The translations under genes and the position numbers were made by a program. Shown in pieces: positions 162 through 23,460 of a DNA stretch of 32,000 nt. The stretch comes from Pseudodesulfovibrio mercurii (lineage in GTDB: Bacteria; Desulfobacterota; Desulfovibrionia; Desulfovibrionales; Desulfovibrionaceae), in contig NC_016803.1 in assembly GCF_000189295.2 (NCBI RefSeq), forward strand, positions 2,040,001-2,072,000, in the 5' to 3' direction. A model generated the notes under the pieces. The model made no database searches. It saw nothing but the letters and a program-made list of their open reading frames with translations, and had not been told where the DNA came from. Within the stretch, counting starts at the first letter, position 1. Every line of letters begins with the position of its first letter.

Positions 162-272
162 GTGTCCACCGCCCGGACCGCCTTCCCGGCGCTGGCCCGG
201 TCCGTCCCATACCTGTTCAGGCATTGTGCGGAAACGCGCAAGGTCGATCCGTGTTGCGCCAATGCCACGGGC

Positions 273-287
273 ATGGCATAGTGCCAT
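273..287. promoter_or_regulatory. 15-bp palindrome ATGGCAtagTGCCAT (candidate operator) upstream of the FmdE-fusion gene
   Basis: Perfect 6-bp inverted arms with a 3-nt spacer. A further TGCCA half-site lies at 263-267. About 75 nt upstream of the ATG at 362. Confidence 0.3.
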
Positions 288-361
288 TCCTTTTTCCGGC
301 GGCAAATACGGGAAGGGGTCGGCGCGCCGCGCCGGGCACTCAATCGAACTGCGAGGCAAGC

Positions 362-1987
362 ATGAACATCGGACAGTACACCTTTGAGGAATTCAAGCAA
401 AAGGCCAAGGAATTTCACGGCTATCCCGCTCCGGGCCTGCTCATCGGCGGGTACATGGTGGAGGCGGCCAAGGCCCGGCTGCCCGAGGGCACCCTGTTCG
501 AGGCCATGGTCGAGTCCGGCAAGTGCCTGCCCGACGCGGTCCAGCTCCTGACCCTGTGCTCCACGGGCAACAACTGGATGAAGGTCAAACTGCTCGGGCG
601 CTACGCCGTGTCCCTGTACGACAAGTTCACGGGCAAGGGGTTCCGGGTGGCCATCGACCAGGAGAAACTCAAGCTCTGGCCCGAGATCCACGACTGGTTC
701 ATGAAGGAGAAGCCGAAGGCCGAGCAGGACACGGAACGGCTCTTCCGCGAGATCGAGGAGGCCGGGGACACCATCTGCTCCATCCGGCCCGTGACCATCG
801 CCAAGAAATACCTCGGCCACGGCCACATGACCACCATCGACGTCTGCCCGGTCTGCGGCGAGGCCTACCCCAGTTCGGACGGCTCCATCTGCCGGGGCTG
901 CCAGGGCGAGGCCCCCTATGAATCCATGGAGGGGGCCGTCTGCGCCGACGACGCCCCGGACCTCAAGGTCATGCCCGTGGAACAGGCCGTGGGCCGGAAG
1001 GCGGTCCACGACATGACCGGCATCCGGCCCGGCGAGTCCAAGGGACCCATCACCAAGGCGGGCGACATTCTCGGCATCGGCGACGTCTGCCGGTTGCAGC
1101 GCATCGGCAAGTTCAACGTCTACGACGCCGAGGCCATCCCCGGCGACGAGTGGGTCCACGAGAACGACGCGGTCAAGGCGTTCGCGAAACGCATGGCCGG
1201 GCCGGGCATCACCTATGACGCCGATCCCGAGGAGGGCAAGATCAACTTCTTCGCCGACCGCGACGGCATGCTGTCCATCGACCTGGACGCCCTCTCCCGG
1301 TTCAACCTCTCCCCGGACGTCATGCTGGCCACCCGGCACGACGGCTCGCTCATGCCCAAGGGCAAGGGCGTGGCCGGGACCAGGGCCATCCCCCTGTACA
1401 TCTCCCGCGACCGGTTCTCGCGCGCCCTGACCGCGCTGGGCGAGGGCCCGGTCCTGTCCGTGCTGCCGCTCAAGGCGGCCAAGGTCGGCATCCTGGTCAC
1501 CGGCACCGAGGTCTTCCAGGGGCTCATCGAGGACAAGTTCATCCCGATCATCTCGTCCAAGGTCATCAAGCTCGGCTGCACCGTGCACATGACCGACATC
1601 GTGCCGGACGAGCGCGAGGCCATCACCAACGCGGCCAAGGCCATGCTCAACGGCGAGTGCGATCTGATCGTGACCACGGCGGGCATGTCCGTGGACCCGG
1701 ACGACGTGACCCGCGCGGCCCTGGTGGACGCCGGGCTGCACGCCGACCACTACGGCGTGCCCATGCTGCCCGGCACCATGACCCTGGTGGGCAAGCTCCG
1801 CAAGGCGGACATCATCGGGGTCCCGGCCTGCGCCCTGTTCTACAAGACCACGGCCTTCGACGTGGTCCTGCCCCGCGTGCTCGCCGGGCAGGAGCTGCGC
1901 CGCAAGGATCTGGCGCGGCTGGGCGAGGGCGGGTTCTGCATGAACTGCAAGACCTGCTCCTTCCCCAAGTGCCCCTTCGGCAAGTAG
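362..1987 (+). CDS. FmdE-domain protein fused to a MoeA/MoaB-like molybdenum-cofactor-binding (MoCF_BD) domain, with a C-terminal Cys cluster
   Basis: In-frame ATG at 362 (MNIGQYTFEEF...) inside the 224..1987 track ORF. The N-terminus has FmdE-like HGYPAPGLLIGG and a zinc ribbon CPVCGEAYPSSDGSICRGC. The C-terminal half has ILVTGTEV...DLIVTTAGMSVDPDD, typical of MoCF-binding domains. The tail is CMNCKTCSFPKCPFGK. Confidence 0.8.
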   Translation: MNIGQYTFEEFKQKAKEFHGYPAPGLLIGGYMVEAAKARLPEGTLFEAMVESGKCLPDAVQLLTLCSTGNNWMKVKLLGRYAVSLYDKFTGKGFRVAIDQEKLKLWPEIHDWFMKEKPKAEQDTERLFREIEEAGDTICSIRPVTIAKKYLGHGHMTTIDVCPVCGEAYPSSDGSICRGCQGEAPYESMEGAVCADDAPDLKVMPVEQAVGRKAVHDMTGIRPGESKGPITKAGDILGIGDVCRLQRIGKFNVYDAEAIPGDEWVHENDAVKAFAKRMAGPGITYDADPEEGKINFFADRDGMLSIDLDALSRFNLSPDVMLATRHDGSLMPKGKGVAGTRAIPLYISRDRFSRALTALGEGPVLSVLPLKAAKVGILVTGTEVFQGLIEDKFIPIISSKVIKLGCTVHMTDIVPDEREAITNAAKAMLNGECDLIVTTAGMSVDPDDVTRAALVDAGLHADHYGVPMLPGTMTLVGKLRKADIIGVPACALFYKTTAFDVVLPRVLAGQELRRKDLARLGEGGFCMNCKTCSFPKCPFGK

Positions 1988-4433: not shown

Positions 4434-6059
4434 CTAGCGCTTGATGGAGATGAGCGTGTTCAGCATGGAATCCGCGGTGGTGATGACCTTGGTGTTGGCC
4501 TGGTAGCCGCGCTGGGTCAGGATCATGTTGGAGAACTCCGTGCTCATGTCCACATTGCTCTCCTCCAGGGAGTTCTGGTTGATGATCCCGCGCCCCCGGT
4601 CCCCGGCCGTGCCGACCATGGCCGTGCCCGAGGCCTCGGTGGCCACGAAGTTGGTCCCGCCGTCGCGCCTGAGCCCCCACGGACTGTTGAACTTGTAGAC
4701 CGCCACCTGGTACAGCTCCTCGGTCTGTCCGTTGGTGAAGTGGCCGCTCAGGATGCCCTCCTCGTCCACGCTGACGTAGTTGAGGTAACCCCAGGTATAG
4801 CCGTCCTGGATGTTGTACAGGGTGGCGGACGGCAGGTCGTAGCTGGTGGTCACGCGGGCGTCGCGGTTGGTGGCGTCCAGGCCGGGGAGCGCGTTCACAT
4901 TGGTGCCCACGGCCGCCGCGTTGCTGGCCCCGCCCGTGGTCCAGGAGGCGGTGTCGGAATTGATCCCGAAATCGTAGGCGATGGTCGAGACCCCGCCCGT
5001 GGCCGCGCCGTTGCTGCCGAAGAGGTAGTTGAACTGCGGCAACCCGTCGTCGCTGAAGGTGGCCGGGACCCAGGAGGACAGGCTGGTGCCGCCCGCCGCC
5101 GAGGTGCCCGCCGGGTCCAGGGTGAAGGCGGACTGGTCGATGAGCGCACCCTGGGCGTTGAAGGTCAGCACCCCCAACCCCGCCAGACCGGCCGCCGAAG
5201 TGCCGAAGGCCGCGGACGCGTCCGAGTCCTCGGGCATGGCGATGAGATATTCCCAGTAGGAGTAGCCGGGCACGGCGTTGGACAGGTTGGTGGTCTCCAC
5301 CGGGTCGAAATAGATGTTCATCTCGTAGCTGTTGCCGTCCTCGTCGTACACGTCGATGGCCGTGGAATACTGCGGCAGGCCGTCGCCGAAGGGCGAGGCC
5401 GCGTTGCTCTGGTTGGCGGTGTACGCCTCCAGCATGGCGAAGAACGGGTTGTCCTCGTTGGAGATCTGGCTGGCGGCCGAATGGTCGAGCCGGGTGACGA
5501 CCTCCACCGAGGTGGTGGCGAAGGGCTGGGAGCGGACCACGCGGGCGGTCTGGCCGTCCACGTCGACGTCCTCGTAGGGCAGCTGCACGTCGGACACGGC
5601 GGTGGCCCACTCGCCGGTCTCCCGGTCGTAGGCGAAGCCCTGGAGCCGGTACCCCTCCGAGTTGACCAGGTAGGCCTCGTTGTCGAAGCGGAAATCCCCG
5701 GCCCTGGTGTAGTGCGACGCCCCCCGGATGGTCCCCGAGGGGTCGTTGACCCCGAAGAACCCCTGGCCCGAGATGGCCAGGTCCGTGGCCTCGGTGGTCT
5801 CGGACAGGGCGCCCTCGGTGAAGATGCCCCGGATGGCGGACACGGCCACGCCCATGCCCATCTGGTTGATGCGCACGTCGCCGTTGTCGTACAGGGCGCC
5901 GCCCGTGGCCACCTGCTGGCTGATGAGGTCGCCGAACAGGATGTCCGAGCGCTTGTAGCCGATGGTGTTGACGTTGGCCAGGTTGTTGGCCAGGACCGAC
6001 ATGCCCTGGCTGTGGGCGATCACGCCGGTGGCGCCCACGTACATGCTTCCGAAACTCAT
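4434..6059 (-). CDS. flgE: Flagellar hook protein FlgE
   Basis: ATG at 6059 preceded by GGAGGAAG. The N-terminus has ...LANNLANVNTIGYK and the C-terminus LEESNVDMSTEFSNMILTQRGYQANTKVITTADSMLNTLISIKR, the conserved flagellar rod/hook terminal motifs. The 864-aa track ORF is an upstream read-through of this frame. Confidence 0.9.
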   Translation of the reverse strand: MSFGSMYVGATGVIAHSQGMSVLANNLANVNTIGYKRSDILFGDLISQQVATGGALYDNGDVRINQMGMGVAVSAIRGIFTEGALSETTEATDLAISGQGFFGVNDPSGTIRGASHYTRAGDFRFDNEAYLVNSEGYRLQGFAYDRETGEWATAVSDVQLPYEDVDVDGQTARVVRSQPFATTSVEVVTRLDHSAASQISNEDNPFFAMLEAYTANQSNAASPFGDGLPQYSTAIDVYDEDGNSYEMNIYFDPVETTNLSNAVPGYSYWEYLIAMPEDSDASAAFGTSAAGLAGLGVLTFNAQGALIDQSAFTLDPAGTSAAGGTSLSSWVPATFSDDGLPQFNYLFGSNGAATGGVSTIAYDFGINSDTASWTTGGASNAAAVGTNVNALPGLDATNRDARVTTSYDLPSATLYNIQDGYTWGYLNYVSVDEEGILSGHFTNGQTEELYQVAVYKFNSPWGLRRDGGTNFVATEASGTAMVGTAGDRGRGIINQNSLEESNVDMSTEFSNMILTQRGYQANTKVITTADSMLNTLISIKR

Positions 6060-6154
6060 ACTTCCTCCGATCCGGCGCGGGCCGGATGCGCGGGAACCGC
6101 CGGGATACCCATTCCCGGCAAGAAATTCCCAAGTCCTTCTCGGAAACATTAAGA

Positions 6155-6169
6155 GCAAGGGACGTGCCA
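6155..6169 (-). promoter_or_regulatory. Sigma54 (-24/-12) promoter for flgE
   Basis: The minus strand reads TGGCAC-gtccc-TTGC, an exact TGGCAC-N5-TTGC. It lies about 96 nt upstream of the flgE ATG. Confidence 0.65.
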
Positions 6170-6380
6170 CAGAGAAAACTTTATCTTTCCGAAGGGAAAG
6201 CCCGGCCGGGGCGCGGCACATCCTGCCGGACGCCCGGTCCCCATGCCGCGAGGCCCGGCCGGACGGGACCGGACGGACCGGGGCCGAACATGTTTCCCTT
6301 GCCAGATACCGGCGCCGCGCGTAGTCTTGCGCGACTTTGCGATCAGAGTGACAGCAAACGAAACTAATGGAGATATAGTA

Positions 6381-6956
6381 ATGAAACGGATTCTTCCCCT
6401 GCTCTTCGTCGCCCTCCTGGCCCTGGGACTGAGCGCCTGCAACCAGGAGCCGTCGGCCAAGATCGGCATCGTGGACGAGGCCGCCGCCTTCAAGGACAAC
6501 AAGCTGGCCACCGAGGCCATGGCCCACCTCCAGGAGATGGGCAAGCCCCTCCAGGAAAAGGCCGAGGCCGCGTACAAGGCCATGCAGGCCAACCAGACCG
6601 AAGAGACCGTGGCCGCCTACAAGCTGGCCATGGGTGAACTCCAGAACACCATGACCGCCGAGCAGCAGCGCATCGTCGGCATGGTCGACGCCAAGTTCAA
6701 CGAGGTCCTGGAGACCTACCGCAAGGAAAAGGGGCTGACCGCCATCCTGAGCAAGCAGGCCGTGATCGCCTCCGACGATGCCGTGGACATCACCAAGGAC
6801 ATCGTGGCCGCCATGAACAAGGTCACCATGGACTTCTCCCTGCCCGAGGCCCCCAAGGCCGAGGCTCCGGCCCCGGCGGCCGAACAGGCCGCTCCGGCGG
6901 CTGCGCCCGCCCCGGCTCCGGCAGCGGACCAGGCCCCGGCCAAGGCCGCGGAATAG
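6381..6956 (+). CDS. OmpH/Skp-family periplasmic chaperone-like lipoprotein with a Pro/Ala-rich tail
   Basis: ATG at 6381 with GGAGA upstream. Signal peptide with lipobox LGLSAC. Skp-like IGIVD...coiled coil...DITKDIVAAMNK. The C-terminus is a low-complexity APAPAAEQAAPAAAPAPAPAA tail. Confidence 0.75.
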   Translation: MKRILPLLFVALLALGLSACNQEPSAKIGIVDEAAAFKDNKLATEAMAHLQEMGKPLQEKAEAAYKAMQANQTEETVAAYKLAMGELQNTMTAEQQRIVGMVDAKFNEVLETYRKEKGLTAILSKQAVIASDDAVDITKDIVAAMNKVTMDFSLPEAPKAEAPAPAAEQAAPAAAPAPAPAADQAPAKAAE

Positions 6957-6973
6957 CCCACCCCGACACGCCA

Positions 6974-7015
6974 CAAAAAAAGGCCTGTCCACCCCACGGT
7001 GGACAGGCCTTTTTC
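6974..7015. terminator. Bidirectional rho-independent terminator
   Basis: A7 run, then 13-bp stem aggcctgtccacc / ggtggacaggcct (6981-7010), then T5. Serves the convergent OmpH-like and Hpt genes. Confidence 0.7.
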
Positions 7016-7031
7016 CGTTCCGGCACACGGC

Positions 7032-10866: not shown

Positions 10867-11445
10867 CTACTTCCTCGCGGCCTCGGCAATGGCCGGGATG
10901 GCCTCGTACATGACCCCGCGCAGGGCCTCGGCCAGGATGTCGGCCTCGGAGGAATAACCGGGCACGACCACGTCCTCCACCTCGCTGGTGTACTTCTCGG
11001 TGTACACGGTCTCGTCCTCGCGCATGACCTTGATGCGCACCGAGACGCGGCCCTTGTAGGTGGTCACGCCGGTCTGGTTCAGGGTCAGCTCCAGGACCTC
11101 GCCGGTGACGACCAGCTTGTCGTCGGGCGTGAGGGTGGCGGTCCGGTACTTGGGCTTGCACCCGGCGTTCTCCAGCTCGTCGAACAGGGCCCAGCCCACC
11201 CACTCGGCCACGTCGGACAGGGTGGTGATGGTCTCCTTGTCCGTGGTCTTGCCCAGGGCCGAGGCGGGCCGCTTGTCCTCGAAACGGTAGACCGTGATCT
11301 CGCCCACGCACGGCGTGTCGGTGGAGATCAGGGCGTATTTCAGCTTGACCGCGTTGCCCGCCGCGCATCCGGCGGTCAGCAGGGCCAGGGCCAGGACCGG
11401 AAGCACCAGCCGTTTCATATATGTCTTCATCGCGTTCATCTCCAT
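10867..11445 (-). CDS. Lipoprotein (YajG-like size and architecture; family uncertain)
   Basis: Lipobox LLTAGC. The ATG at 11445 overlaps the upstream stop (TGATG), suggesting coupling. Alternative ATGs lie at 11430 and 11418. Confidence 0.7.
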   Translation of the reverse strand: MEMNAMKTYMKRLVLPVLALALLTAGCAAGNAVKLKYALISTDTPCVGEITVYRFEDKRPASALGKTTDKETITTLSDVAEWVGWALFDELENAGCKPKYRTATLTPDDKLVVTGEVLELTLNQTGVTTYKGRVSVRIKVMREDETVYTEKYTSEVEDVVVPGYSSEADILAEALRGVMYEAIPAIAEAARK

Positions 11446-11855
11446 CAGATTTGGTCGCCCGTGGCGGGCGGTTCCTCGGTTGCCGGGGGCGTGTCGTCCA
11501 GCTGGGACTCCATCTTGTCCAGGAGCTTGCGGGTCAGTTCCATGAGCCGGTCGAGATTCTCACCCACGAAGCTCTTGGCCTTGGCGTCCAGTTCCTCGTC
11601 GGAGGGGGCGGCGCCGGACCCGGCGTCCCCGCCGTCCCCGGAACGATCCTTGTCCGCTTCGAGCAGGGCGCGGATGTCCTCGAGGTTCCCGCGCACGCGG
11701 GCCAGTTCCTCGCGCAACGCTTTGTCGCGCGCGGCGGCCTCCTGCTCCAGGGACTTGACCTGGGCCTCCAGCCGATCCACGCGCTCCGCATCGGGACCGG
11801 GTCCCGAGCAGGCGAACAGGGCCAGAACCAGGGCGAGTGCAGCCAATCGTTTCAT
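11445..11855 (-). CDS. Small lipoprotein with a coiled-coil segment and acidic tail
   Basis: ATG at 11855 preceded by GAAGGAGG. Lipobox ALFAC. The heptad-like stretch RVDRLEAQVKSLEQEAAARDKALREELARVRGNLEDIRALLE follows. Confidence 0.7.
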   Translation of the reverse strand: MKRLAALALVLALFACSGPGPDAERVDRLEAQVKSLEQEAAARDKALREELARVRGNLEDIRALLEADKDRSGDGGDAGSGAAPSDEELDAKAKSFVGENLDRLMELTRKLLDKMESQLDDTPPATEEPPATGDQI

Positions 11856-11942
11856 GGGCGCCTCCTTCGCATGGCTTCCGATACCACAACCCCTCGCGGG
11901 CTGACAATGCGCAAGGACGGTCCCGGACGGCCATCCCGCTCC

Positions 11943-11970
11943 TTGCCTTTCGCCCGTAAATCCGTACAAT
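11943..11970 (+). promoter_or_regulatory. Sigma70-like promoter for the 12015 operon
   Basis: TTGCCT (11943-11948), a 16-nt spacer, then TACAAT (11965-11970). About 45 nt upstream of the ATG at 12015. Confidence 0.45.
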
Positions 11971-12014
11971 GCGTTCACGGTTGCTTCCATATCCGCAGAG
12001 AGACGACATCGGCA

Positions 12015-12473
12015 ATGAACACACTGCGCGCCCTGACATTCCTGATCGTCCTGGCGGCCGCGGCCATCCCGGCCATGGCCTCCGACTACGCCCAGGCCCC
12101 CCACCCCACCGGCTTCCGAGGCCTGGCCTGGGGCACTGCCCTGTCCGAGACCCAGGGGCTGGTCCCGGTGCAGGAGCCCGGCTTCGAAAACACCTACTTC
12201 AAACGCGACGAGCCCAAGACCTTCGGCAAGGCCGACATCCTGTCCGTGGCCTACTACTTCCGCCAGGACAAGCTCTACCGCGTGGGCATCGCCTTCAAGG
12301 GGCGGGTCAACCAGTTCTTCCTCAAGGACATGCTCATGCAGCGCTACGGCATGGGCCGGGGCATCGGCTTCCGCTACGGCTGGATGTGGCCCGATTTCTC
12401 CATCGAACTGAACTACGACAACGACAAGGACAGCGGCAGCCTCTACTACACCTTTGAAGGCGCCCTGCAATAA
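12015..12473 (+). CDS. Secreted hypothetical protein
   Basis: In-frame ATG at 12015. Signal peptide MNTLRALTFLIVLAAAAIPAMA|SD. G/C-rich third positions. Followed 8 nt later by the next gene. No family recognised. Confidence 0.6.
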   Translation: MNTLRALTFLIVLAAAAIPAMASDYAQAPHPTGFRGLAWGTALSETQGLVPVQEPGFENTYFKRDEPKTFGKADILSVAYYFRQDKLYRVGIAFKGRVNQFFLKDMLMQRYGMGRGIGFRYGWMWPDFSIELNYDNDKDSGSLYYTFEGALQ

Positions 12474-12481
12474 TCCGCCCC

Positions 12482-13267
12482 ATGGACCGTTCCGCCACCG
12501 CACGACCCACGGCGCGCCACAAGGCGCTGTACGCCTTGAGCGTCGCGGCCCTGGCCCTGCTCCTGTGCGCCTGCTTCGGGGTGGTCTACAGCCTGCGCCT
12601 CCATCCGGACGCGGACCGCGACCGGCTCCTGCACCTGGCCTACCTGTGCATGGCGGGTGGGTTCCTGGTGCTCGCGGCCCAGGGGCTGCTGGTCTTCAAG
12701 AAGATTCTGGCCCCCATGGGCCGGGACGCGGCCCGCGCCGACGAACTGGCCGAGCTGGTGGAGCGGCTGGCGGTCCTGGACTCCCTGACCCAGGCCTACA
12801 ACCGGGGCAAGTTCGAGGAGATCATCACCCGGGAGCTGGACAACGTCCGGCGCTACGGCCTGGACCTGTCCGGAATCATGCTCGACGTGGACGGATTCCG
12901 GGCCATCAACCAGCTCCACGGCTACTACGCCGGCGACCGGTTGCTGGCCAACCTGGCCCACTACCTGGACGCCCAGCTGCGCAGCAACGACTTCCTGTTC
13001 CGCTGGCACGGCGGCAAGTTCATCATCCTCTGTCCGCACACGGACATCGACCGGGCGGCCATCGTGGCCGAGAAGATCCGCATGCTCGTGGGGCACAAGC
13101 TGTTCGGCGGCAAGGTCCGCATGTTCCTCTCCCTGGGCGTGGTCCAGGCCGAGGAGGAGGACACCGCCGAGACCCTCATGCAGCGGCTCCAGGCGGGCCT
13201 GGCCGCGTCCAAGAACGGCGGCCGGAACCAGGTCACCGTGGTCCGCGTCCCGCTCTTTTCCTACTGA
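12482..13267 (+). CDS. Membrane-anchored GGDEF-domain protein with degenerate active site (HGGKF) and intact RxxD I-site
   Basis: Two N-terminal hydrophobic segments. GGDEF-fold motifs DVDGFRAINQLHGYYAGDRLL. The A-site position reads RW-HGGKF (13007-13021) and RSND lies 5 residues upstream (12980-12991). Confidence 0.85.
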   Translation: MDRSATARPTARHKALYALSVAALALLLCACFGVVYSLRLHPDADRDRLLHLAYLCMAGGFLVLAAQGLLVFKKILAPMGRDAARADELAELVERLAVLDSLTQAYNRGKFEEIITRELDNVRRYGLDLSGIMLDVDGFRAINQLHGYYAGDRLLANLAHYLDAQLRSNDFLFRWHGGKFIILCPHTDIDRAAIVAEKIRMLVGHKLFGGKVRMFLSLGVVQAEEEDTAETLMQRLQAGLAASKNGGRNQVTVVRVPLFSY

Positions 13268-13396
13268 CCCGGACCCCGTCCGGGGGCGGGTCCGAAGCCT
13301 TGGGAACAGTCGCGCCATCCCATTTCCTTTTTTCCCGGTTCTACGCTATATGGTGAGGGCGATAATCAGACACTCCGAACAGGACGGCCCGCAACC

Positions 13397-15877
13397 ATGG
13401 CGCAGGACAAGACCACCCACTATCTCAAATACGCCCCCACCAGGGTCCTGCTCCCCTCGGCCCTGATGCTTCTTCTCTTCGCCGGTTCCATCTTCCTCTA
13501 CCTTCTGCCCTCGGTGGAGACGGCCCTGCTCGACGCCCAGAAGGAAAAGGTCGTGGAGATCACCGACACCGTGGTCGGCACCCTGGTCCACCTGAACGAC
13601 ATGGCCGAGCGCGGCGAGATATCCCTCGACTACGCCCACCGGCTGGGCGCGGAGTTCGTCAAGACCACCCGCTACGGCCCGGAGGCCAAGGCCTATTTCT
13701 GGATCACGGACCTGACCCCGCGCATGATCATGCACCCCTACCGGCCCGACCTGGACGGCCAGGACCTGACCGACTACCGGGACCGCGAGGGCAAGCGGAT
13801 ATTCATGGAGTTCCTGCACGCGGCCCGGCGCAACCAGGACGCCTTCGTGGACTACTACTGGCAGTGGCAGGACCAGCCCGAGCGCATCGCCCGCAAGCTC
13901 TCCCACGTGCGTCTGTTCGCCCCCTGGGGCTGGGTTATCGGCACCGGCCTGTACACCGACGACGTGCATGCCGAAATCGGCGTGTACCGCAACCACGTGG
14001 CCCTGATCTTCCTCGGCATCCTGCTGGCCAGCGCCCTGCTCTCCCTGTACGTGGTCCGCCAGGCGGGCATGACCGAAATGAAGAAGGCCCAGATCCAGGG
14101 CCAGCGGGAAAAACTGGTCCGCGTGCTCCAGGAGAGCGAGGAGCGCTACCGGACCATCGCGGACTTCGGCTACGACTGGGAGATATGGATCGGTACGGAC
14201 AACTCCATCCACTACTGCTCCCCGGCCTGCCAGCGGATCACCGGGTACCCGCCCGAGCGGTTCTTCGAGGACCCCGGCCTGGTCCGGGAGATCATCATCA
14301 ACGACGACCAGGACGCCTGGGACGCCTATCTGGTGGAGGCCGACTCGGACCGGGGCGACTCGCTCGACTTCCGCATCCTGACCGCGGACGGCAAGGTCCG
14401 CTGGCTCGGCGTGGTCGGCCGGTCCGTGTCCGGCATCGGCGGCAAGCCCCTGGGCATGCGCCTGAGCTTCCGCGACATCACCGACCGCAAGACCATGGAG
14501 GAACAGCTCCGCCACCAGGCCCTGCACGACCCCCTGACCAACCTGGCCAACCGGACCCTGTGCCTGGACCGACTGGGCCAGGCCATGCGCCGGGCCAAAC
14601 GGCGCGAGAACTACTTCTTCGCGGTGGTCTTCCTGGACCTCGACCGCTTCAAGATCATCAACGACTCCCTGGGCCACCGCTTCGGCGACATGGTCCTGGC
14701 CGAGACGGCCATCCGGCTGTCCGGCGAGATGCGCGGCCTGGACACGGTCTCCCGGTTCGGCGGGGATGAGTTCGTCCTGCTCCTGGACGAGCTGTCCAGC
14801 CCCGGCGAGGCCATCCGGATCATCAAGCGCGTGCGCGAGCGGCTGTCCGAGCCCTTCCGCTTCAACGGCAACGAGGTCCAGACCACGGCCAGCTTCGGCA
14901 TCGTCCTGAGCCCCGTGGTGGACGGCAAGGCCCCGGACGTGCTGCAACACGCCAACATCGCCATGCACCGCGCCAAGGAGGCCGGACGCAACCGCTTCAA
15001 GGTCTTCACCGAGCGCATGCTCGAGACCGCCGTGGACCAGCTGACCCTGGAGAACGACATGCGCCGGGGGCTGGCCAACGACGAGTTCCACGTGGTCTAC
15101 CAGCCGATCATGGACCTGAACGGCTCGGACGTGGTCGGCTTCGAGGCCCTGGCCCGCTGGGACCACCCGGACCGGGGGGCCATCCCGCCCGCCGAGTTCA
15201 TCCCCATGGCCGAGGAGTCCGGGCTGATCGTCGAGCTGGGCGAGTGGGTCCTGCAACAGGCCCTGCGCACCCTGGCCGGGTGGCGCAACGACACCCCGGG
15301 CGTGGACGACATCTTCATGTCCGTGAACCTGTCGAGCAAACAGTTCGCCCGTATCGAGCTGGACAAGATCGTGGTCCGGACCCTGGAGCGGTACGGCCTG
15401 CCCCCGTCCTGCCTCAAACTCGAGATCACCGAGTCCTCCATCATGGGCAACCCGGAATCCTCCCTGCGCATCCTGAACCGGCTGCGCAAGGCCGGGGTGC
15501 GCTTCTCCATCGACGACTTCGGCACGGGCTACTCCTCCCTGTCCCAACTCCAGCAACTGCCCGTGGACACCCTCAAGGTGGACCGGACCTTCATCTCGCG
15601 CATGCGCACCGACCCGGAGAACATGGAGATCGTCAAGGCGGTCATCGCCCTGGGCCACTCGCTGGACCTGAACGTGGTCGCCGAGGGCGTGGAGAACCCG
15701 GAACAGCTCTGCTCCCTGCTCAACCTGTCGTGCAACTGCGTCCAGGGGTTCTACTTCCACGAGCCCATGAACGCGGCCCTGGCCCGTGAGATGCTCCGGC
15801 AGCGCACCGCCCGGACCGCCGAGGAGACACGAGAAAAGGTTGAGGCCGCCCGGCGCGACTGCAAGCCCGACGAATAG
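13397..15877 (+). CDS. Cache-PAS-GGDEF-EAL c-di-GMP turnover protein
   Basis: The periplasmic segment between two TM helices has the Cache-like YFWITD...MIMHPYRPDLDGQDL. A PAS region follows. Intact RGLD...GGDEF. EAL motifs EALARW, DDFGTGYSSL, KVDRTFI and EGVE are all present. Confidence 0.9.
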   Translation: MAQDKTTHYLKYAPTRVLLPSALMLLLFAGSIFLYLLPSVETALLDAQKEKVVEITDTVVGTLVHLNDMAERGEISLDYAHRLGAEFVKTTRYGPEAKAYFWITDLTPRMIMHPYRPDLDGQDLTDYRDREGKRIFMEFLHAARRNQDAFVDYYWQWQDQPERIARKLSHVRLFAPWGWVIGTGLYTDDVHAEIGVYRNHVALIFLGILLASALLSLYVVRQAGMTEMKKAQIQGQREKLVRVLQESEERYRTIADFGYDWEIWIGTDNSIHYCSPACQRITGYPPERFFEDPGLVREIIINDDQDAWDAYLVEADSDRGDSLDFRILTADGKVRWLGVVGRSVSGIGGKPLGMRLSFRDITDRKTMEEQLRHQALHDPLTNLANRTLCLDRLGQAMRRAKRRENYFFAVVFLDLDRFKIINDSLGHRFGDMVLAETAIRLSGEMRGLDTVSRFGGDEFVLLLDELSSPGEAIRIIKRVRERLSEPFRFNGNEVQTTASFGIVLSPVVDGKAPDVLQHANIAMHRAKEAGRNRFKVFTERMLETAVDQLTLENDMRRGLANDEFHVVYQPIMDLNGSDVVGFEALARWDHPDRGAIPPAEFIPMAEESGLIVELGEWVLQQALRTLAGWRNDTPGVDDIFMSVNLSSKQFARIELDKIVVRTLERYGLPPSCLKLEITESSIMGNPESSLRILNRLRKAGVRFSIDDFGTGYSSLSQLQQLPVDTLKVDRTFISRMRTDPENMEIVKAVIALGHSLDLNVVAEGVENPEQLCSLLNLSCNCVQGFYFHEPMNAALAREMLRQRTARTAEETREKVEAARRDCKPDE

Positions 15878-16749: not shown

Positions 16750-17075
16750 GGCACCCTCCTTGGGCGTTGACGACGAGGCATGTACCACACCCCCCAGGGA
16801 TGTCAAAACACCCGTCGCGCCCCGCGGGAGCCCCCGTGCGCCGGGGGTTCCCGCCTCCGGAAACATAAGAACCGGTTATGTAAAAGATAATTAATTCAAG
16901 CAGTGAGAGTGGCCTCACCGGAGAATTGCGTTGAAATATTTGTCATTCTGTGCAACAAGGGGATACCGGGTGGAATAGTCTTCCCCCCGGGGGTGTGTTT
17001 TGCCGCCCATGCAATGTGGGCACGGCGAAAAAAGTTGCGGTCCTTATTAACTTCTGTGGTTCCTTAGGAGGAAAC

Positions 17076-18044
17076 ATGAAACGGATCTACATCCTGGCCC
17101 TTGCCATTGCCGTATTTTTCGGCATGTCTTTCGACGCGCAGGCCAAAAAGCGCTATGTCTTCGGCGGCGGTCCGGCCGGCGGCACCTTCCAGATCGTGGC
17201 CAACGCCATCCAGGTCTTCGCCCCCATCAAGGACAACCCCAACTTTTCCATCAAGGCCCAGTCCTCGGGCGGCTCCACCGAGAACCTGCGCACGGTCAAC
17301 GCGGGCCGCTGCGCCTTCGGCACCGTGTACGCTGGCGAGGTCTACCTGGGCCGCAACGGCAAGCTGACCGGCGACCCGAACAAGTACGAAAAGGTCCTGA
17401 CCGTGGGCTACCTCTACGGCGCGCCCGCCCAGCTGGTCATCCGCAAAGGCTCGGGCATCAAGTCCGCCAAGGACCTGGCCGGCAAGAAGGTCGGCGTGGG
17501 CAACGCCGGTTCCGGCGCCTTCGCCAACTGCGAGCGGTTCTTCACCCACCTGGGCATCTGGGACAAGATCGAGCGCAACGCCATGGGCTACAACGACGCG
17601 GCCCAGGCCTTCGGCAACGAACAGCTCGACGCCTTCTGGCTGCTGACCGCCTATCCGTCCGGGGCCGTGATCATGGCCGCCCAGACCAACGACATCGACC
17701 TGGTGGATGTCGGGGCCGACGCGCAGAACTCCGGCTACTACGAGGCCTATCCCTACTTCGGCAAGCTGACCATCCCGGCGGGCACCTACCGCGGGGTGGA
17801 TCACGACACCCCCTCCTTCTTCGATTCCGCGCTGCTCGTGGCCAACGCCGACGTGCCGGCCGAGGACGTGTACCAGCTCCTCAAGGCCATCTGGTCCGAG
17901 GAAGGCCTGAAGCACATGGTCGAGCAGAAGAAGACCTTCAAGGCCATGAGCGTGGCCGACGGTCTCAAGGGCGTGAATCCGGCAGCGACTCCCCTGCACC
18001 CCGGTGCGGAGAAGTTCTGGAAGGAAATGGGCGTCCTGAAGTAG
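17076..18044 (+). CDS. TAXI-family TRAP transporter solute-binding protein (paralog 1)
   Basis: ATG at 17076 preceded by AGGAGG. Signal peptide present. TAXI-like GGGPAGGTFQ..., SSGGSTENL, YLYGAPAQLV and PLHPGAEKFWKE. Confidence 0.85.
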   Translation: MKRIYILALAIAVFFGMSFDAQAKKRYVFGGGPAGGTFQIVANAIQVFAPIKDNPNFSIKAQSSGGSTENLRTVNAGRCAFGTVYAGEVYLGRNGKLTGDPNKYEKVLTVGYLYGAPAQLVIRKGSGIKSAKDLAGKKVGVGNAGSGAFANCERFFTHLGIWDKIERNAMGYNDAAQAFGNEQLDAFWLLTAYPSGAVIMAAQTNDIDLVDVGADAQNSGYYEAYPYFGKLTIPAGTYRGVDHDTPSFFDSALLVANADVPAEDVYQLLKAIWSEEGLKHMVEQKKTFKAMSVADGLKGVNPAATPLHPGAEKFWKEMGVLK

Positions 18045-18062
18045 GCCCCCGCTCCCGACATC

Positions 18063-18094
18063 GTGCACGGGCGGGCCGCACGGCCCGCCCGCAC
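18063..18094 (+). other. GC-rich intercistronic stem-loop (no U-tract)
   Basis: gtgc(a)cgggcgggccg / cggcccgcccgcac lies 19 nt after the binding-protein stop. It sits within a 217-bp gap before the permease gene. Confidence 0.4.
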
Positions 18095-18261
18095 CGCGCG
18101 TTCCCGGCGGACTCCGGTCCCCGCCGGGCCCGCGCGCAGGAAACCGATCCGCCCCGCACGGCCCGGCCGGTCTTCGGTCACGGCCCTCCGGCCCCCGGCC
18201 CGTGCGCCCGGCGCGACACATTTTTCAACCCCCGCCCCCAGCGGGCGGCCGAGAGCGCGCA

Positions 18262-20379
18262 ATGTACGACAAATTAAACAAATTCGAACGGTTTCTCTTC
18301 GACTTCCTGTCCGTGGCCATGGTCCTGTTCTACTCCTGGTCGGCCATCTTCGAACCGGCGGCGACCCAGTACCACCGGGGCGTCTACGTGATCATTACGT
18401 ACATCCTCGTCTTCCTGCTCTACAAGTCCAGGAGCCGGATCATGCGCGTGGTGGACTACCTGCTCATGCTCGCCTCCCTGACCTCCGTGGGCTACTGGAT
18501 CCTGAACTTCGAGGTCATCAACTACCGCATCGGCCGGGAGGACGACTGGGACAAGGCCATGGCCATGATCGGCGTGCTGATCGGCATCGAACTGGCCCGC
18601 CGGGTGGTCGGCAACGTCTTCGTCATCATCGGCGTGCTCATGCTCCTGTTCGGCATGTACGGCGCGCACATGCCCGAGCTCATCGCCCACGCGGGCGCGA
18701 GCTTCCCGGACCTGTGCACCTCCATCTTCTACCGCTCGGACGGCGTGTTCGGCATCATGGCCAACGTGCTGGCCACCTACATCATCCTGTTCGTGCTCTT
18801 CGGGGCCTTCCTGGAGCAGTGCGGGGCACAGCGGTTCTTCATCGACTGGCCGCTGGCGGCCGTGGGCCACAAGATCGGCGGCCCGGCCAAGGTCTCGGTC
18901 ATCGCCTCGGGCCTGTTCGGGTCCATCTCGGGCTCGGCCATCGCCAACACCGTGTCCACCGGCTCCTTCACCATCCCGATGATGAAAAAGGCGGGCTTCA
19001 AGCCCCACGTGGCCGGCGGCATCGAACCCGCCGCCTCCATCGGCGGCATGTTCATGCCTCCGATCATGGGCGCGGGCGGGTTCATCATGGCCGAGATGAC
19101 CGGCCTGCCCTATTCGCAGATCATGCTCATCGCCATCTTCCCGGCGTTCATGTACTTCTTCTCCGTGTTCGTCATGGTCCACTACGAGGCCAAGAAAGAG
19201 AACATCGTGGGCGAGCGGTACAAGGAAAACGCCATGACCATCTTCAAGCGGGAATGGCTCTACACCCTGCCGCTCATCGGCATCACCATCTTCATGCTGG
19301 CCGGCTACTCGCCGGGCTATTCGGCCATCGTCGGCCTGGCCATCTGCATCGGCCTGTCCTTCAAGGACGACACCCAGCGCATCGATCCGACCCTGCTCAT
19401 CGTCATGGCCTTCATGGTCGTCTGCCCCTGGCTGGTCAAACTGGTCGGCCTGGTGGGCGGCAAGGAGGCGGCCACGGCGCTGCGGCCGTTCATGTCCGGC
19501 CGCATCCTCATGCTCTACGGCCTGATCGCGGCCGCCGCGTTCTTCTTCTACCGGAAGAAGAGCCGGTTGGACGACAGCGGCCAGACCTTCGTCGTGGTCG
19601 CCACGCTCATGGGCGTCTCCATCCTGATGACCCTGGTCCACACGGTCCCGGCCATGATCAGCCCGGAATTCGCCAAGTCCTTCAACGCGATATTCAACAA
19701 GGAAATAATCCTCCTGGTCGGTCTGCTGATCGCCGCGGCGGTCTTCGCCTATCCCAGGGGCGAACGGAACGAACTGCACGGGTTCGTCGTCGCGTCCCGC
19801 ATGGGCACCATCAACTCGCTCAAGATCGGCGCCACCGTCGGCGTCATCGGCATCATCATCGGCGTATTGACCTACTCCGGCCTGGTGCTGACCTTCGCCG
19901 ACATCGTCATCGAGCTGGCCCACGGCAACCTGATCTACACCATCCTGCTCATCGCCCTGGCCTCGCTGATCCTCGGCATGGGCGTGCCCGTCACCGCCGC
20001 CTACCTGATCACCGCCGTGGTCGCGGTCCCGGCCCTGACCCACCTGGGGGTCAACGAGGTCGCCGCGCACATGATCGTCTACTGGCTGTCCCAGGACTCC
20101 AACATCACCCCGCCGGTCTGCATCGCCGCCTTCGCGGGCGCGACCATCGCCGGGGCCAACATGTGGCGGACCGCGTTCACCTCGTTCAAGTTCGCTAAAT
20201 TCCTCTACCTGGCGCCGTTCCTGTTCGCCTACATCCCGGCGTTCTCCCTGGACGCCTCCGTGCAGCAGATCGTCATCTGGTTCGCCGTCATCACGGTCAT
20301 CGTCTACGTATACGCCTGGTTCATGAGCTTCATCTGGTTCAAGCCGCTGAAGCGCCTGCTCGGCCTGGCCCCGGCCTGA
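18262..20379 (+). CDS. TRAP transporter fused permease (TAXI-type, small+large membrane components)
   Basis: In-frame ATG at 18262. The 705-aa polytopic membrane protein has DctM-like segments, e.g. ASGLFGSISGSAIANTVSTGSFTIPMMKKAGF and GANMWRTAFTSFKF. Confidence 0.9.
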   Translation: MYDKLNKFERFLFDFLSVAMVLFYSWSAIFEPAATQYHRGVYVIITYILVFLLYKSRSRIMRVVDYLLMLASLTSVGYWILNFEVINYRIGREDDWDKAMAMIGVLIGIELARRVVGNVFVIIGVLMLLFGMYGAHMPELIAHAGASFPDLCTSIFYRSDGVFGIMANVLATYIILFVLFGAFLEQCGAQRFFIDWPLAAVGHKIGGPAKVSVIASGLFGSISGSAIANTVSTGSFTIPMMKKAGFKPHVAGGIEPAASIGGMFMPPIMGAGGFIMAEMTGLPYSQIMLIAIFPAFMYFFSVFVMVHYEAKKENIVGERYKENAMTIFKREWLYTLPLIGITIFMLAGYSPGYSAIVGLAICIGLSFKDDTQRIDPTLLIVMAFMVVCPWLVKLVGLVGGKEAATALRPFMSGRILMLYGLIAAAAFFFYRKKSRLDDSGQTFVVVATLMGVSILMTLVHTVPAMISPEFAKSFNAIFNKEIILLVGLLIAAAVFAYPRGERNELHGFVVASRMGTINSLKIGATVGVIGIIIGVLTYSGLVLTFADIVIELAHGNLIYTILLIALASLILGMGVPVTAAYLITAVVAVPALTHLGVNEVAAHMIVYWLSQDSNITPPVCIAAFAGATIAGANMWRTAFTSFKFAKFLYLAPFLFAYIPAFSLDASVQQIVIWFAVITVIVYVYAWFMSFIWFKPLKRLLGLAPA

Positions 20380-20398
20380 CCGTAACCCACGCAATCAC

Positions 20399-20430
20399 CC
20401 CGCAAGGGGCGGCAAGCCGCCCCTTGCGGG
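20399..20430 (+). other. 14-bp perfect stem-loop after the permease gene (terminator-like, no U-tract)
   Basis: cccgcaaggggcgg-caag-ccgccccttgcggg. Confidence 0.45.
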
Positions 20431-20574
20431 ATGCCCCCTGGCCCCCCCACCCCCTCTCTCACCATCCCAAACTTTTTGGCGCCGCTTCGCGGGGGGTGTA
20501 CTATTTAGTAAAATTACATTTTTTACACCACCGTTCCGGCACGCCGCCAACACACCGCCCCCCGCGTTCGCACG

Positions 20575-20666
20575 GCCCTGCCGAAGGCACACAAAAAGTT
20601 TGGGAGGGTCCAGGGAACCCTTTTCAAAGGGTTCCCTGGTCTCCCCGAAGGGGCCGCCGGAGGCAT
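20575..20666 (+). repeat. Intergenic repeat family R1, copy a
   Basis: Shares three blocks with 24508-24630: gccctgccgaaggcacaYaaaaagtttRgga, the palindrome core gggaaccctttt..aaagggttccc, and ggccgccggaggcat. The internal 13-bp palindrome is 20610-20622 / 20627-20639. Confidence 0.75.
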
Positions 20667-20846
20667 CCCCTTCGCTCCGCTCCTCGCCCCCCCACCCCTG
20701 ACCTGCCCGGCGGACTGTCGCGAGGGATTATTATTTGCATACGCAGGGGCGTGGTGCGTTGTATTCGCGGACGACGTGTGGCAAAAAGTCGTTCAAACCG
20801 GACGCTGCGCCCGACGCGGCGTGAATCCCTCGGTTGCGGAGGTCTG

Positions 20847-21863
20847 ATGTCCCGCCTGGCCGTCATCCTGATTTCGTTGTGCTGCCTGGCCGTTTTCGCG
20901 GTCACGGACTGCGCGTGGGACATGCCGGGCGAGGCGCACGCGACGCAACCCGCCAAGGTTCGGACCCTGTTGTTCAACGGCGGTCCGCGCGGCGGGACCT
21001 TCAACCACTTCGCCAACAAGATGGCGGCGGTCATCAGCGAGGACGTGCCCGGCCTGGACGTGCTGGCGCGGCAGTCGAGCGGGAGCGTGGACAATCTCCT
21101 GGCCCTGTGCGCGGGCACGGCGGACATGGCCATCGCCAATGCGGGCGACGCCTTTCTGGCGCGCACGGGCAAGTTGAACTGCGCGCACAAGAAATACGCC
21201 GATGTTCAGGCCCTGGCCTACTTGTACGGAGCTCCGGCGCAGCTGGTGGTGCGTGCGGACTCGGCCATCCACACGGTGCTCGACCTGCGCGGCAAGGTCC
21301 TGGCGGTGGGCAATCCGGGCTCGGGCGCGGCCCTGTCGGCCGAGCGGTTCTTCCGCCACCTCAAGCTCTGGGGACGGATCAGGCATCGGTCCGTGGGCTA
21401 TGCCGAGGCGGCGGCGGACTTCGCCTCGGGCGCGGTGGATGGGTTCTGGGTCCTGGCGGGCGTGCCCAACACGGCGGTCATCGAGGCGGCGGCGGGCGTG
21501 CCGGTGCGGCTGCTCGACCTGCACCAGGCGGCCACGGTCTCGAGCTTCTACCAGCTCTATCCCTTCTACTCGCAGGCGACCATCCCGGCCGGGACCTATA
21601 CGGGCCAGGACGAGCCCGTGCAGACCTTCCAGGACGCGGCCCTGTGGTGCGCGCGCACCGGGCTGGACAGCCGGATCGTGTACGACAGCCTCAAGGCGGT
21701 GTTTTCCGAAACCCGGCTCGAAGAGCTGCGCCAGGCCCACGGCGCGGCCCGGGACATGTCCCTCAAGACCGGCATCCGCAGCCTGTCCATCCCCCTGCAC
21801 CCCGGCGCGGTCCGCTTCTGGGACGAGCACCGGGTGGAGATTCCGCCCATCCTCATGCCCTAG
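20847..21863 (+). CDS. TAXI-family TRAP solute-binding protein (paralog 2)
   Basis: ATG at 20847 preceded by GGAGG. Signal peptide present. Shares YLYGAPAQLV, GNPGSGA, PLHPGAVRFW and the overall layout with the 17076 gene. Confidence 0.85.
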   Translation: MSRLAVILISLCCLAVFAVTDCAWDMPGEAHATQPAKVRTLLFNGGPRGGTFNHFANKMAAVISEDVPGLDVLARQSSGSVDNLLALCAGTADMAIANAGDAFLARTGKLNCAHKKYADVQALAYLYGAPAQLVVRADSAIHTVLDLRGKVLAVGNPGSGAALSAERFFRHLKLWGRIRHRSVGYAEAAADFASGAVDGFWVLAGVPNTAVIEAAAGVPVRLLDLHQAATVSSFYQLYPFYSQATIPAGTYTGQDEPVQTFQDAALWCARTGLDSRIVYDSLKAVFSETRLEELRQAHGAARDMSLKTGIRSLSIPLHPGAVRFWDEHRVEIPPILMP

Positions 21864-22140: not shown

Positions 22141-23460
22141 ATGGCATTGTTCACCAAGGAAGAAGCGCTCAACTATCACTCCAGCAAACGCAAGGGCAAG
22201 CTGGAGGTCATCTCCATCAAACCGTGCAGGAACCAGAAGGACCTGTCCATGGCCTACAGCCCCGGCGTGGCCGAGGCCTGCCGCGCCATCCACGCGGACA
22301 CGGAAAAGGTCTACGACTACACCAACAAGGGCAACCTGGTGGCGGTCGTGTCCAACGGCACCGCCGTGCTCGGCCTGGGCAACATCGGGCCCGAGGCGGG
22401 CAAGCCGGTCATGGAGGGCAAGGGCGTCCTGTTCAAGATATTCTCCGACATCGACGTCTACGACCTGAACATCAGCGCCAAGACCCCGGACGAGGTGGTC
22501 GCCTTCTGCAAGCTGCTGGAGCCGACCTTCGGCGGCATCAACCTGGAGGACATCAAGGCCCCCGAGTGCTTCGAGATCGAGACCCGGCTCAAGGCCGAAA
22601 TGGGCATCCCGGTCTTCCACGACGACCAGCACGGCACGGCCATCATCTCGGCGGCGGGCATCATGAACGCCCTGGAGATCTCGGGCAAGAAGATCGACGA
22701 GATCAGGATCGTGGTCTCGGGCGCGGGCGCGGCGGCCATCGCCTGCTCCAACCTGTACGTGCACATGGGCGTCAAGCGCGAGAACATCTTCATGTTCGAC
22801 TCGCGCGGCCTGATCCACGCCGGGCGCACCGATCTGAACGAGTTCAAGCAGGCCTACGCCCAGACCGAGAACAAGGGAACCCTGGCCGAATGCATGGTCG
22901 GGGCCGACATGTTCCTGGGGCTGTCCGTCAAGGACGCCATCAACCAGGACATGGTCAGGACCATGGCCGACAACGCCATCATCTTCGCCTGCGCCAACCC
23001 GGACCCGGAGATCACCTACGAGGCGGTCAAGGAAGTGCGCCCGGACATCATCATGGGCACGGGCCGGTCCGACTTCCCCAACCAGGTCAACAACGTGCTC
23101 GGCTTCCCGTTCATCTTCCGGGGCGCGCTCGACTGCCGCGCCAAGACCATCAACGAGGAGATGAAGATCGCCGCGGCCGAAGCCCTGGCGCGCCTGGCCA
23201 AGGAGCCGGTCTCCCAGGACATCTGCGACGCCTTCGGCGTGGACAAGCTCGAGTTCGGCATCAACTACATCATCCCCAAGCCGCTGGACCCGCGCGTTCT
23301 CACCTGGCTCGCCCCGGCCGTGGCCAAGGCCGCCATGGACACCGGCGTGGCCCAGATTCAGCTGGACCTCGACCAGTACGCCAAGGACCTCGAAGCGCGC
23401 ATGATCGCCTCCAAGGCCCGCACCAAGCTCGTGGTCGATTCCTTCGGGTACGACATCTAG
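22141..23460 (+). CDS. NAD(P)-dependent malic enzyme (short form, no PTA domain)
   Basis: GGGAGG upstream. [56 protein letters not shown] and GAGAAAIA are classic malic-enzyme motifs. Confidence 0.9.

Follow-up and report, generated by a model that had tools for sequence, protein, structure and literature searches.

What does a GGDEF domain do when its catalytic motif has been lost and its inhibitory site has been kept? Degenerate GGDEF domains account for a sizeable fraction of the bacterial cyclic di-GMP (c-di-GMP) proteins, and few of them have an assigned role. The question is raised by a 32,000-nucleotide stretch (hereafter "the window") of contig NC_016803.1, positions 2,040,001 to 2,072,000 of the forward strand, from Pseudodesulfovibrio, the genus that includes the mercury-methylating model strain P. 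mercurii, to which this DNA belongs. A gene at 12482-13267 of the window encodes a membrane-anchored protein of 261 amino acids in which the active-site motif GG(D/E)EF is replaced by HGGKF, and an RxxD motif of the kind that forms the inhibitory site (I-site) stands just upstream. The reading we favor, which we regard as evenly balanced between right and wrong, is that this protein is an inactive c-di-GMP receptor that would bind its ligand through the I-site (R167-x-x-D170 together with K198) and would work with a secreted protein, sec152, encoded by the preceding gene.

The gene and the parts of its product on which the argument turns are as follows.

12482 to 13267, forward strand: degenerate GGDEF protein, 261 amino acids, membrane-anchored (open reading frame, Pfam, AlphaFold, fold search)
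12524 to 12697, forward strand: transmembrane hairpin made of two helices (about residues 15-37 and 49-72) joined by a short periplasmic turn (about 38-48), seen in hydropathy and as AlphaFold helices
12698 to 12778, forward strand: cytoplasmic stalk helix, continuous with the second transmembrane helix and leading into the GGDEF domain (AlphaFold)
12770 to 13231, forward strand: GGDEF domain, residues 97-250 (Pfam PF00990, Foldseek)
12980 to 12991, forward strand: RSND, the RxxD I-site motif (R167 and D170; codons CGC AGC AAC GAC), kept in 118 of 118 family sequences
13007 to 13021, forward strand: HGGKF, the degenerate active site (A-site) in place of GG(D/E)EF (codons CAC GGC GGC AAG TTC); family consensus [RHQAG][GS]G[KRT]F
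13073 to 13075, forward strand: K198, occupying the place of the secondary I-site Arg, which canonical domains show as AERIR; 117 of the 118 family sequences have Lys there

A P. mercurii protein identical to the 261-residue product (100%) goes by the name "diguanylate cyclase" in the sources. Pfam PF00990 matches it from the first to the last of the 161 profile positions (E=3.3e-28), with 98.9 bits where the cut-off is 23.8, and TIGR00254 likewise passes its cut-off of 37.4 with 102.5 bits. No Pfam domain other than GGDEF rises above cut-off, and there is no HAMP or EAL match. Other long open reading frames that overlap 12482-13267 lack such support and are expected by chance from G+C-rich sequence. 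The AlphaFold model reaches a mean confidence (predicted local distance difference test, pLDDT) of 86 overall and about 95 within the GGDEF domain, and its closest solved folds in a Foldseek search of the PDB are stalk-bearing active cyclases, namely SiaD, DgcB, the Idiomarina phytochrome cyclase, WspR and PleD (E about 1e-17 to 1e-14; TM-score up to 0.91, normalised to the target).

The active site of this otherwise orthodox domain is altered in a fixed manner. HMMER places "rwhggkfiil" without a gap on "RYGGEEFGII" of 3ign and on "RWGGEEFLII" of 5llw, and the Arg-aromatic pair before the motif and the beta-strand after it also stay in register against 3ign, 5llw and 4wxo. The motif accordingly reads G to H, G kept, E to G, E to K and F kept. 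Another register, with GGKFI taken as GGDEF carrying a one-residue insertion, was rejected, since HMMER aligns both the motif and the beta-strand (FIILCP on FGIILP) gapless.

The family was sampled through the 106 closest protein clusters (34-100% identity) and a profile search of 1.84 billion representative proteins. All 106 clusters, drawn from Pseudodesulfovibrio, Humidesulfovibrio and metagenome sequences, carry RxxD-xxFRW-[H/R][G/S]G[K/R]F, and the profile search found about 14 clusters at the 50% level of the same layout (about 245-275 residues), with the motifs RGGKF, RSGRF, RGGRF, RGGTF, QGGRF, AGGRF and GGGTF. Nearly all of the remaining domains in the best 150 proteins are canonical GG(D/E)EF, the exceptions being degenerate second domains in multi-GGDEF proteins. 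Tandem double-GGDEF proteins are numerous among the other top profile-search matches, and one match of 1274 residues (P0181) contains seven or eight tandem GGDEF-like repeats, mostly degenerate (GRDEF, GEDEF, AGDEF, DEDTF, NGGEF and EGGIF, besides one GGEEF). In the searched literature, an [R/H]GG[K/R]F-type motif was not found in a GGDEF context, only unrelated peptide papers being matched, and no paper linking Pseudodesulfovibrio to GGDEF proteins was found.

Residues were compared between 118 family sequences and 193 canonical GGDEF domains from the same profile-search matches. Every family sequence has Gly at the position of the Mg-binding Glu, and Lys or Arg (rarely Thr) at the second Glu. 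The positions that set the family apart from the canonical residue given in brackets are Gly178 (Glu/Asp), Lys/Arg179 (Glu), Tyr148 (His, 91%) and Lys198 (Arg, 69%), together with Phe173; those shared with canonical domains are D100, T103, N107, R108, D135, D137, N143, G147, G151, D152, R174, F180 and K244. Because both acidic residues of the motif are replaced in every member, cyclase activity of the 261-residue protein is very unlikely. The reading as an active cyclase whose motif happens to be unusual is accordingly highly improbable. In its favor one can cite the protein's name in the sources, the intact substrate-binding residues outside the motif, and a report that altered motifs, AGDEF among them, can retain activity (PMC3974145). 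However, AGDEF retains both acidic residues, E to G and E to K/R/T replacements are universal in this family, the Mg ligand E370 is essential in the mechanism of PleD (bioRxiv 10.1101/2025.08.22.671821), and the NCBIfam cyclase equivalogs are all far below their cut-offs, the best being SiaD with 105.9 against 290 bits.

Beyond the motif, the A-site looks quite different. R108, D135, D137, N143, D152 and K244 are invariant in the family, and position 140 is Lys or Arg in most members; R108, D135, R140, N143, D152 and K244 of the 261-residue protein are the counterparts of R300, D327, K332, N335, D344 and K442 of PleD. The guanine is hydrogen-bonded by N335 and D344 in PleD, the phosphates are contacted by K332 and R300, and the Mg ligands are D327 and E370 (bioRxiv 10.1101/2025.08.22.671821). 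Judged from these alignments, the metal ligand E370 and its neighbor are gone, and the remaining substrate pocket is intact throughout the family. K442, the counterpart of K244, is likewise a substrate-contact residue of PleD. At the conserved residues, synonymous codons vary among 13 loci (Arg CGC/AGA/CGG/AGG, Gly GGC/GGA/GGG/GGT, Lys AAG/AAA), and therefore purifying selection acts on the protein. The A-site is thus a conserved, charge-reversed variant and not a decayed copy.

A remodelled A-site of this kind might itself be functional. It could bind a guanine nucleotide (guanosine triphosphate (GTP), guanosine penta- or tetraphosphate ((p)ppGpp), or c-di-GMP) without metal, with Lys179 and His/Arg176 replacing the Mg-binding acids and contacting phosphates; alternatively, it could pair with the active GGDEF domain of a neighbor. 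The protein would then be a pseudo-enzyme sensor, or would block or scaffold a cyclase, and the I-site would be an additional feature. We consider this unlikely. The pattern is fixed rather than randomly decayed (Gly178, a basic residue 179, a mostly basic 176, and Tyr148 in place of His), and the residues outside the motif, whose PleD equivalents bind guanine, Mg and phosphates, are invariant or kept basic. These same residues, however, are conserved in nearly all GGDEF domains and may serve folding, and R248, which we take to be the equivalent of the phosphate-contacting R446 of PleD, is not conserved in the family. A recent study indicates that (p)ppGpp can occupy a GGDEF active site (bioRxiv 10.1101/2025.08.22.671821), but metal-free nucleotide binding at a GGDEF A-site is without precedent in the searched literature. 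The idea of pairing draws on degenerate CdgI of Escherichia coli, which makes strong heteromeric contacts with other GGDEF domains (PMC5635695); the gene neighborhood bears on it as well, as described below.

How much weight can the I-site carry? In the 261-residue protein, RSND is followed by the five residues FLFRW and then by HGGKF. A single RxxD is by itself weak evidence, because 175 of the 244 non-family GGDEF domains among the nearest matches (72%) have one. Position 198, 22 residues past the start of the motif, is more informative; from its spacing, we take it to be the position of the secondary I-site residue Arg390 of PleD. Among the 175 RxxD-positive non-family domains, this position is basic in 94% (Arg in 141, or 81%; Lys in 23, or 13%), whereas among the 69 RxxD-negative ones Arg (31, or 45%) is the only basic residue in the six commonest. 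A basic residue at 198 thus appears to track with the I-site, and Lys appears to be an accepted alternative. Moreover, both RxxD and K198 are among only 28 invariant columns in an alignment of 39 sequences whose members are 34-79% identical to the window protein. Retention of RxxD in all 118 A-site-dead members exceeds chance, and such a family would have no need of product inhibition. At the level of sequence, the 261-residue protein has the degenerate A-site and the conserved RxxD five residues before it that mark I-site receptors of the PopA, PelD, PssE, YdaK and CdgI type; Lys at 198, where Arg is usual, is a less certain point of agreement. PssE binds c-di-GMP with a dissociation constant of 0.79 uM and two ligands per protein (PMC4125290), purified CdgI binds c-di-GMP and contacts other GGDEF domains (PMC5635695), and YdaK has been described as a degenerate GGDEF c-di-GMP receptor with an intact RxxD (PMC9800504).

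The next question is how the domain is held at the membrane. Hydropathy marks hydrophobic stretches at residues 13-42 and 48-79, preceded by a positively charged N-terminal tail (four Lys/Arg), and the AlphaFold model (39 orthologues) has a helix at 11-40, a turn at 41-45 and a long helix at 46-98 that reaches from the membrane into the GGDEF domain. On account of these features, the protein is membrane-anchored with both termini inside, leaving no more than some 5-11 residues on the periplasmic side. Within the family, pairwise identity is 50-51% in the transmembrane helices, 59% in the GGDEF domain, 29% in the periplasmic turn and 31% in the stalk, and the helices carry the invariant or near-invariant polar residues Y17, S20, Y36 and Q67. 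Since the transmembrane helices almost equal the GGDEF domain in conservation and have conserved polar residues, the hairpin is more than an anchor; the turn is a poor candidate for a specific docking site.

The same figures invite the proposal that the protein is a ligand-free membrane scaffold or adaptor, in which the hairpin is the functional part and RxxD a structural or historical relic. The near match in conservation between helices and GGDEF domain and the polar residues within the helices would fit such a role, as would the frequency of RxxD in the ancestral pool (72%). Nevertheless, no part of the protein is more conserved than the GGDEF domain, and the few columns that stay invariant at 34-79% identity to the window protein include the I-site triad and the residues that contact nucleotide; a scaffold without ligand is therefore rather improbable.

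On the protein itself, the preliminary description of this DNA holds up well. It had read HGGKF at 13007-13021, which the codons and the ungapped HMMER alignment on GGEEF confirm; it had placed RSND at 12980-12991 five residues before it in I-site geometry, which is confirmed and recurs throughout the family; and it had judged cyclase activity unlikely and the protein membrane-anchored, as is borne out by an A-site devoid of both acidic residues and by the hydropathy and AlphaFold hairpin. What it appears to have missed is that the motif is a conserved, charge-reversed variant in which the guanine- and metal-binding residues are retained.

If the protein is a receptor, what does it work with? 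The candidate lies directly upstream.

12015 to 12473, forward strand: sec152, secreted protein, 152 amino acids (open reading frame; signal-peptide-like N-terminus at about residues 1-23, AMA before SD)
11943 to 11970, forward strand: sigma-70-like promoter match TTGCCT-16-TACAAT, 45 nucleotides before the start of sec152 (one match against 0.3 expected in shuffles)

The stop codon of sec152 lies 8 nucleotides before the start codon of the degenerate GGDEF gene. Loci L001-L003 were obtained by a contig scan with the family alignment and the others by exact-protein look-ups. Upstream DNA is readable in 13 loci: nine of Pseudodesulfovibrio type (the window, L001, L002, L082, L084, L085, L086, L093 and L094) and four of other lineages (L003, L081 from Humidesulfovibrio, L087 and L090). 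In all 13, a sec152 homologue stands upstream on the same strand as the degenerate GGDEF gene, with a gap of 8-37 nucleotides where the two are adjacent, and the linkage persists down to about 34-40% identity of both proteins. In L087 (3421-4026) and L090 (4328-4897), a gene for a cyclophilin-type peptidyl-prolyl isomerase sits between the two; in one of these loci it runs opposite to them, in the other in the same direction. The apparent operon with a secreted protein that the preliminary description had proposed at this place thus looks to be a conserved two-gene module, and its request for conserved synteny is answered by sec152. The promoter at 11943-11970 is a consensus match and would be a putative start for both genes; no terminator-like site was found within 11300-13500.

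AlphaFold (pLDDT 91.2) models the mature part of sec152 as a compact alpha/beta domain of about 130 residues, in which a helix lies against a beta-sheet. The protein matched no family in Pfam or NCBIfam. Pfam scans of 33 relatives gave weak, scattered matches only (E>=0.009, none common to more than six members), a PDB sequence profile search gave nothing better than E=0.32, and comparison of the model with PDB folds gave nothing below E=0.04. The top fold match, an Rhs immunity protein (TM-score 0.42, E=0.04), was rejected as a homologue. Homologues of sec152 form 117 clusters, the named ones all from Desulfovibrionaceae, including Pseudodesulfovibrio, Salidesulfovibrio and Humidesulfovibrio, and the degenerate GGDEF family has the same narrow taxonomic range. 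The module is most likely confined to these sulfate-reducing Desulfovibrionaceae, as far as the homologues indicate.

A mechanism for the favored receptor can be sketched from what has been shown: a GGDEF domain whose A-site is dead and whose I-site residues are conserved, the hairpin topology, and the genetic linkage to sec152. The two genes would be co-transcribed; sec152 would be exported and would fold in the periplasm, and the degenerate GGDEF protein would insert with both ends in the cytoplasm and probably dimerize through the second transmembrane helix and the stalk. Binding of c-di-GMP at the I-site would fix the orientation of the GGDEF domains on the dimeric stalk, as it does in cyclases. 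The change in orientation might then be passed across the membrane to sec152, or sideways to another GGDEF protein or cytoplasmic partner, so that the direction of signaling and the output are drawn here as possibilities.

Several observations weigh against this receptor. Its role is read from sequence for all family members. RxxD occurs in 72% of the nearest canonical cyclases and so is partly inherited, and the secondary I-site residue is Lys in place of the usual Arg. N143 and D152 (guanine), D135 (metal), R108 and K244 are invariant, and a pure I-site receptor would need none of them. A periplasmic turn of about 5-11 residues at 29% identity disfavors specific docking of the highly conserved sec152, and neither the 261-residue protein nor its surroundings hold an evident output domain or target gene. 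Since guanine- and metal-binding residues outside the motif are retained, a second ligand site is possible. On this basis one may conceive a two-site sensor, in which the I-site reads c-di-GMP, the charge-reversed A-site reads GTP or (p)ppGpp without metal, and the signal travels through the transmembrane hairpin to sec152; we hold this combination to be doubtful.

Where would the c-di-GMP come from? The preliminary description had paired the receptor with a local source, the GGDEF-EAL gene that follows. The flanking genes that enter into this question are the following.

13397 to 15877, forward strand: sCache_2-PAS-GGDEF-EAL sensor, 826 amino acids (open reading frame, Pfam), a neighbor within the genus only
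10867 to 11855, reverse strand: two divergent lipoprotein genes, syntenic with the module and putatively linked to it on that ground
11445 to 11855, reverse strand: lipoprotein of 136 amino acids, lipobox LFAC (open reading frame)
10867 to 11445, reverse strand: lipoprotein of 192 amino acids, lipobox LTAGC (open reading frame)

The 826-residue sensor has an intact RFGGDEF, an RGLD I-site and the motifs EAL, NLS, EITE, DDFGTG, KVD, EGVE and QG, and may be bifunctional; all of its NCBIfam equivalog scores are below cut-off. The gene after the module encodes a GGDEF sensor in 9/9 Pseudodesulfovibrio-type loci, so that within the genus this sensor could supply the c-di-GMP. It is the Cache-PAS-GGDEF-EAL gene in four of these (the window, L002, L085 and L093). 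The other five (L001, L082, L084, L086 and L094) have instead a PAS-rich protein of about 1020 residues with a C-terminal GGDEF domain, which reads RxxD-GGEEF in L082, L084, L086 and L094. The Cache-PAS-GGDEF-EAL orthologue follows one gene further on in L001 and L082, and the PAS-rich GGEEF sensor takes its place in L084, L086 and L094. Outside the genus, L081 has ffh as the next gene, L087 and L090 have an unrelated convergent gene, so that these three have no c-di-GMP gene downstream, and L003 has no match to the GGDEF-EAL gene. The proposed pair of source and receptor thus stands for the window and part of the genus, and fails as a family-wide arrangement, being missing from all four loci of other lineages; synteny of the GGDEF-EAL gene reaches genus level only. 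The partner conserved throughout the family is sec152, not the GGDEF-EAL enzyme. For a remodelled A-site that pairs with an active cyclase, the constant presence of a GGDEF sensor in the Pseudodesulfovibrio-type loci is a point in favor, and the lack of any GGDEF neighbor outside the genus is a point against.

Between the degenerate GGDEF and GGDEF-EAL genes, neither a terminator nor inverted repeats of at least 12 nucleotides were found, and the intergenic region is not unusually structured (folding z=0.58). A 7-bp G+C hairpin without a T-run (CCCGGAC-CCC-GTCCGGG, 13268-13285) lies directly after the degenerate GGDEF stop codon. No c-di-GMP riboswitch or other Rfam family was found in the window.

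The two lipoprotein genes overlap stop to start at 11445 and share a 160-bp intergenic region with the sec152 operon. Both stand beside the module in seven Pseudodesulfovibrio-type loci, L002 has only the 192-residue gene, and the four loci of other lineages have neither. Neither product has a Pfam or PDB match, and a PDB sequence search with the 192-residue lipoprotein gave nothing better than E=0.32. A ferredoxin-nitroreductase gene is likewise syntenic with the module, within the genus only.

Elsewhere in the window, a FlgE-like hook open reading frame of 864 residues (4434-7028, reverse strand) has its Pfam rod and hook domains only from residue 329 onward; translation may in truth begin further downstream, or the N-terminal third may be atypical. 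A FlgM-like gene is found a few kb away from the module in L084 and L086. The window also holds a fusion of FmdE, with a zinc finger, to a molybdopterin-binding MoCF_biosynth domain (224-1987, forward strand), two NMT1_3 (TAXI-type) solute-binding protein genes flanking a fused DctM-type TRAP permease (16950-21863, forward strand), and, after this permease cluster, a malic enzyme gene (22141-23460).

Which known system comes closest? By function, the closest appear to be CdgI, PssE and YdaK, and by sequence and fold the canonical stalk-bearing cyclases. CdgI (YeaI) of E. coli is likewise a GGDEF-only protein, attached to the membrane at its N-terminus, with a degenerate A-site and an intact RxxD, but it has an N-terminal sensory domain common to DgcT and DgcX where the 261-residue protein has only a two-helix hairpin (PMC5635695). 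No conserved secreted partner has been described for CdgI, whereas the 261-residue protein has sec152. PssE of Listeria monocytogenes and YdaK of Bacillus are also membrane-associated degenerate GGDEF proteins with RxxD five residues before the dead motif (PMC4125290, PMC9800504). Their genes belong to operons for exopolysaccharide synthesis, and what they do is activate the synthase, whereas no glycosyltransferase or export genes flank the module. Furthermore, the PssE motif DKDDA is decayed, and the motif here is a conserved variant. PleD, WspR, DgcB and SiaD share the fold, the layout of stalk helix plus GGDEF domain, RxxD and the contact residues outside the motif; PleD-type cyclases differ in having the catalytic acids (Gly and Lys here), the GHxxGD His (Tyr here) and the secondary I-site Arg (Lys here).

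Two systems that join a membrane GGDEF protein to a periplasmic one were also weighed. LapD combines a large periplasmic domain with a HAMP domain and an EAL domain that binds c-di-GMP, and LapG is a protease. LapD resembles the present case in being, as reported, an inner-membrane receptor with a degenerate GGDEF domain that is functionally tied to a periplasmic protein (PMC5231407). However, the periplasmic, HAMP and EAL domains of LapD are lacking in the 261-residue protein, and sec152 belongs to no recognisable protease family, so that the likeness is one of logic only; the short, variable periplasmic turn weakens a simple LapD-LapG-like picture. A LapD-type receptor was rejected in view of the missing HAMP and EAL domains, the turn of about 5-11 residues and a LapD equivalog score of 30.6 against 1020 bits. 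The YfiBNR and HmsCDE systems are similar in gene content, in that a gene for a small periplasmic protein accompanies one for a membrane GGDEF protein, and lipoprotein genes lie close by. YfiN carries a sensor domain in the periplasm. It is reported to be an active cyclase that lacks autoinhibitory I-sites (PMC10127611). The 261-residue protein, unlike YfiN, has a short periplasmic turn, a dead A-site and an I-site. A YfiN/YfiR-type pair was accordingly rejected, there being no periplasmic domain, a DgcN/YfiN equivalog score of 71 against 325 bits, and no Pfam family for sec152.

For the study of degenerate GGDEF domains, this family offers a clean case: a small single-domain protein with a fixed acid-to-basic active site, an intact I-site and an obligatory partner without a known fold. 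Its value is moderate and lies mainly in being a compact, testable module of the degenerate-GGDEF receptor kind. If the A-site still binds nucleotide, the family would represent a new way of reusing a cyclase active site as a sensor. If both sites are read, the module would be a minimal inside-out signaling device, unrelated in sequence to LapD-LapG and equipped with a previously undescribed secreted fold. If the receptor reading is true, the 261-residue protein would be a testable example of a receptor with almost no periplasmic part that is tied to a periplasmic protein and, judged by the searched literature, the first candidate c-di-GMP effector pointed out in Pseudodesulfovibrio.

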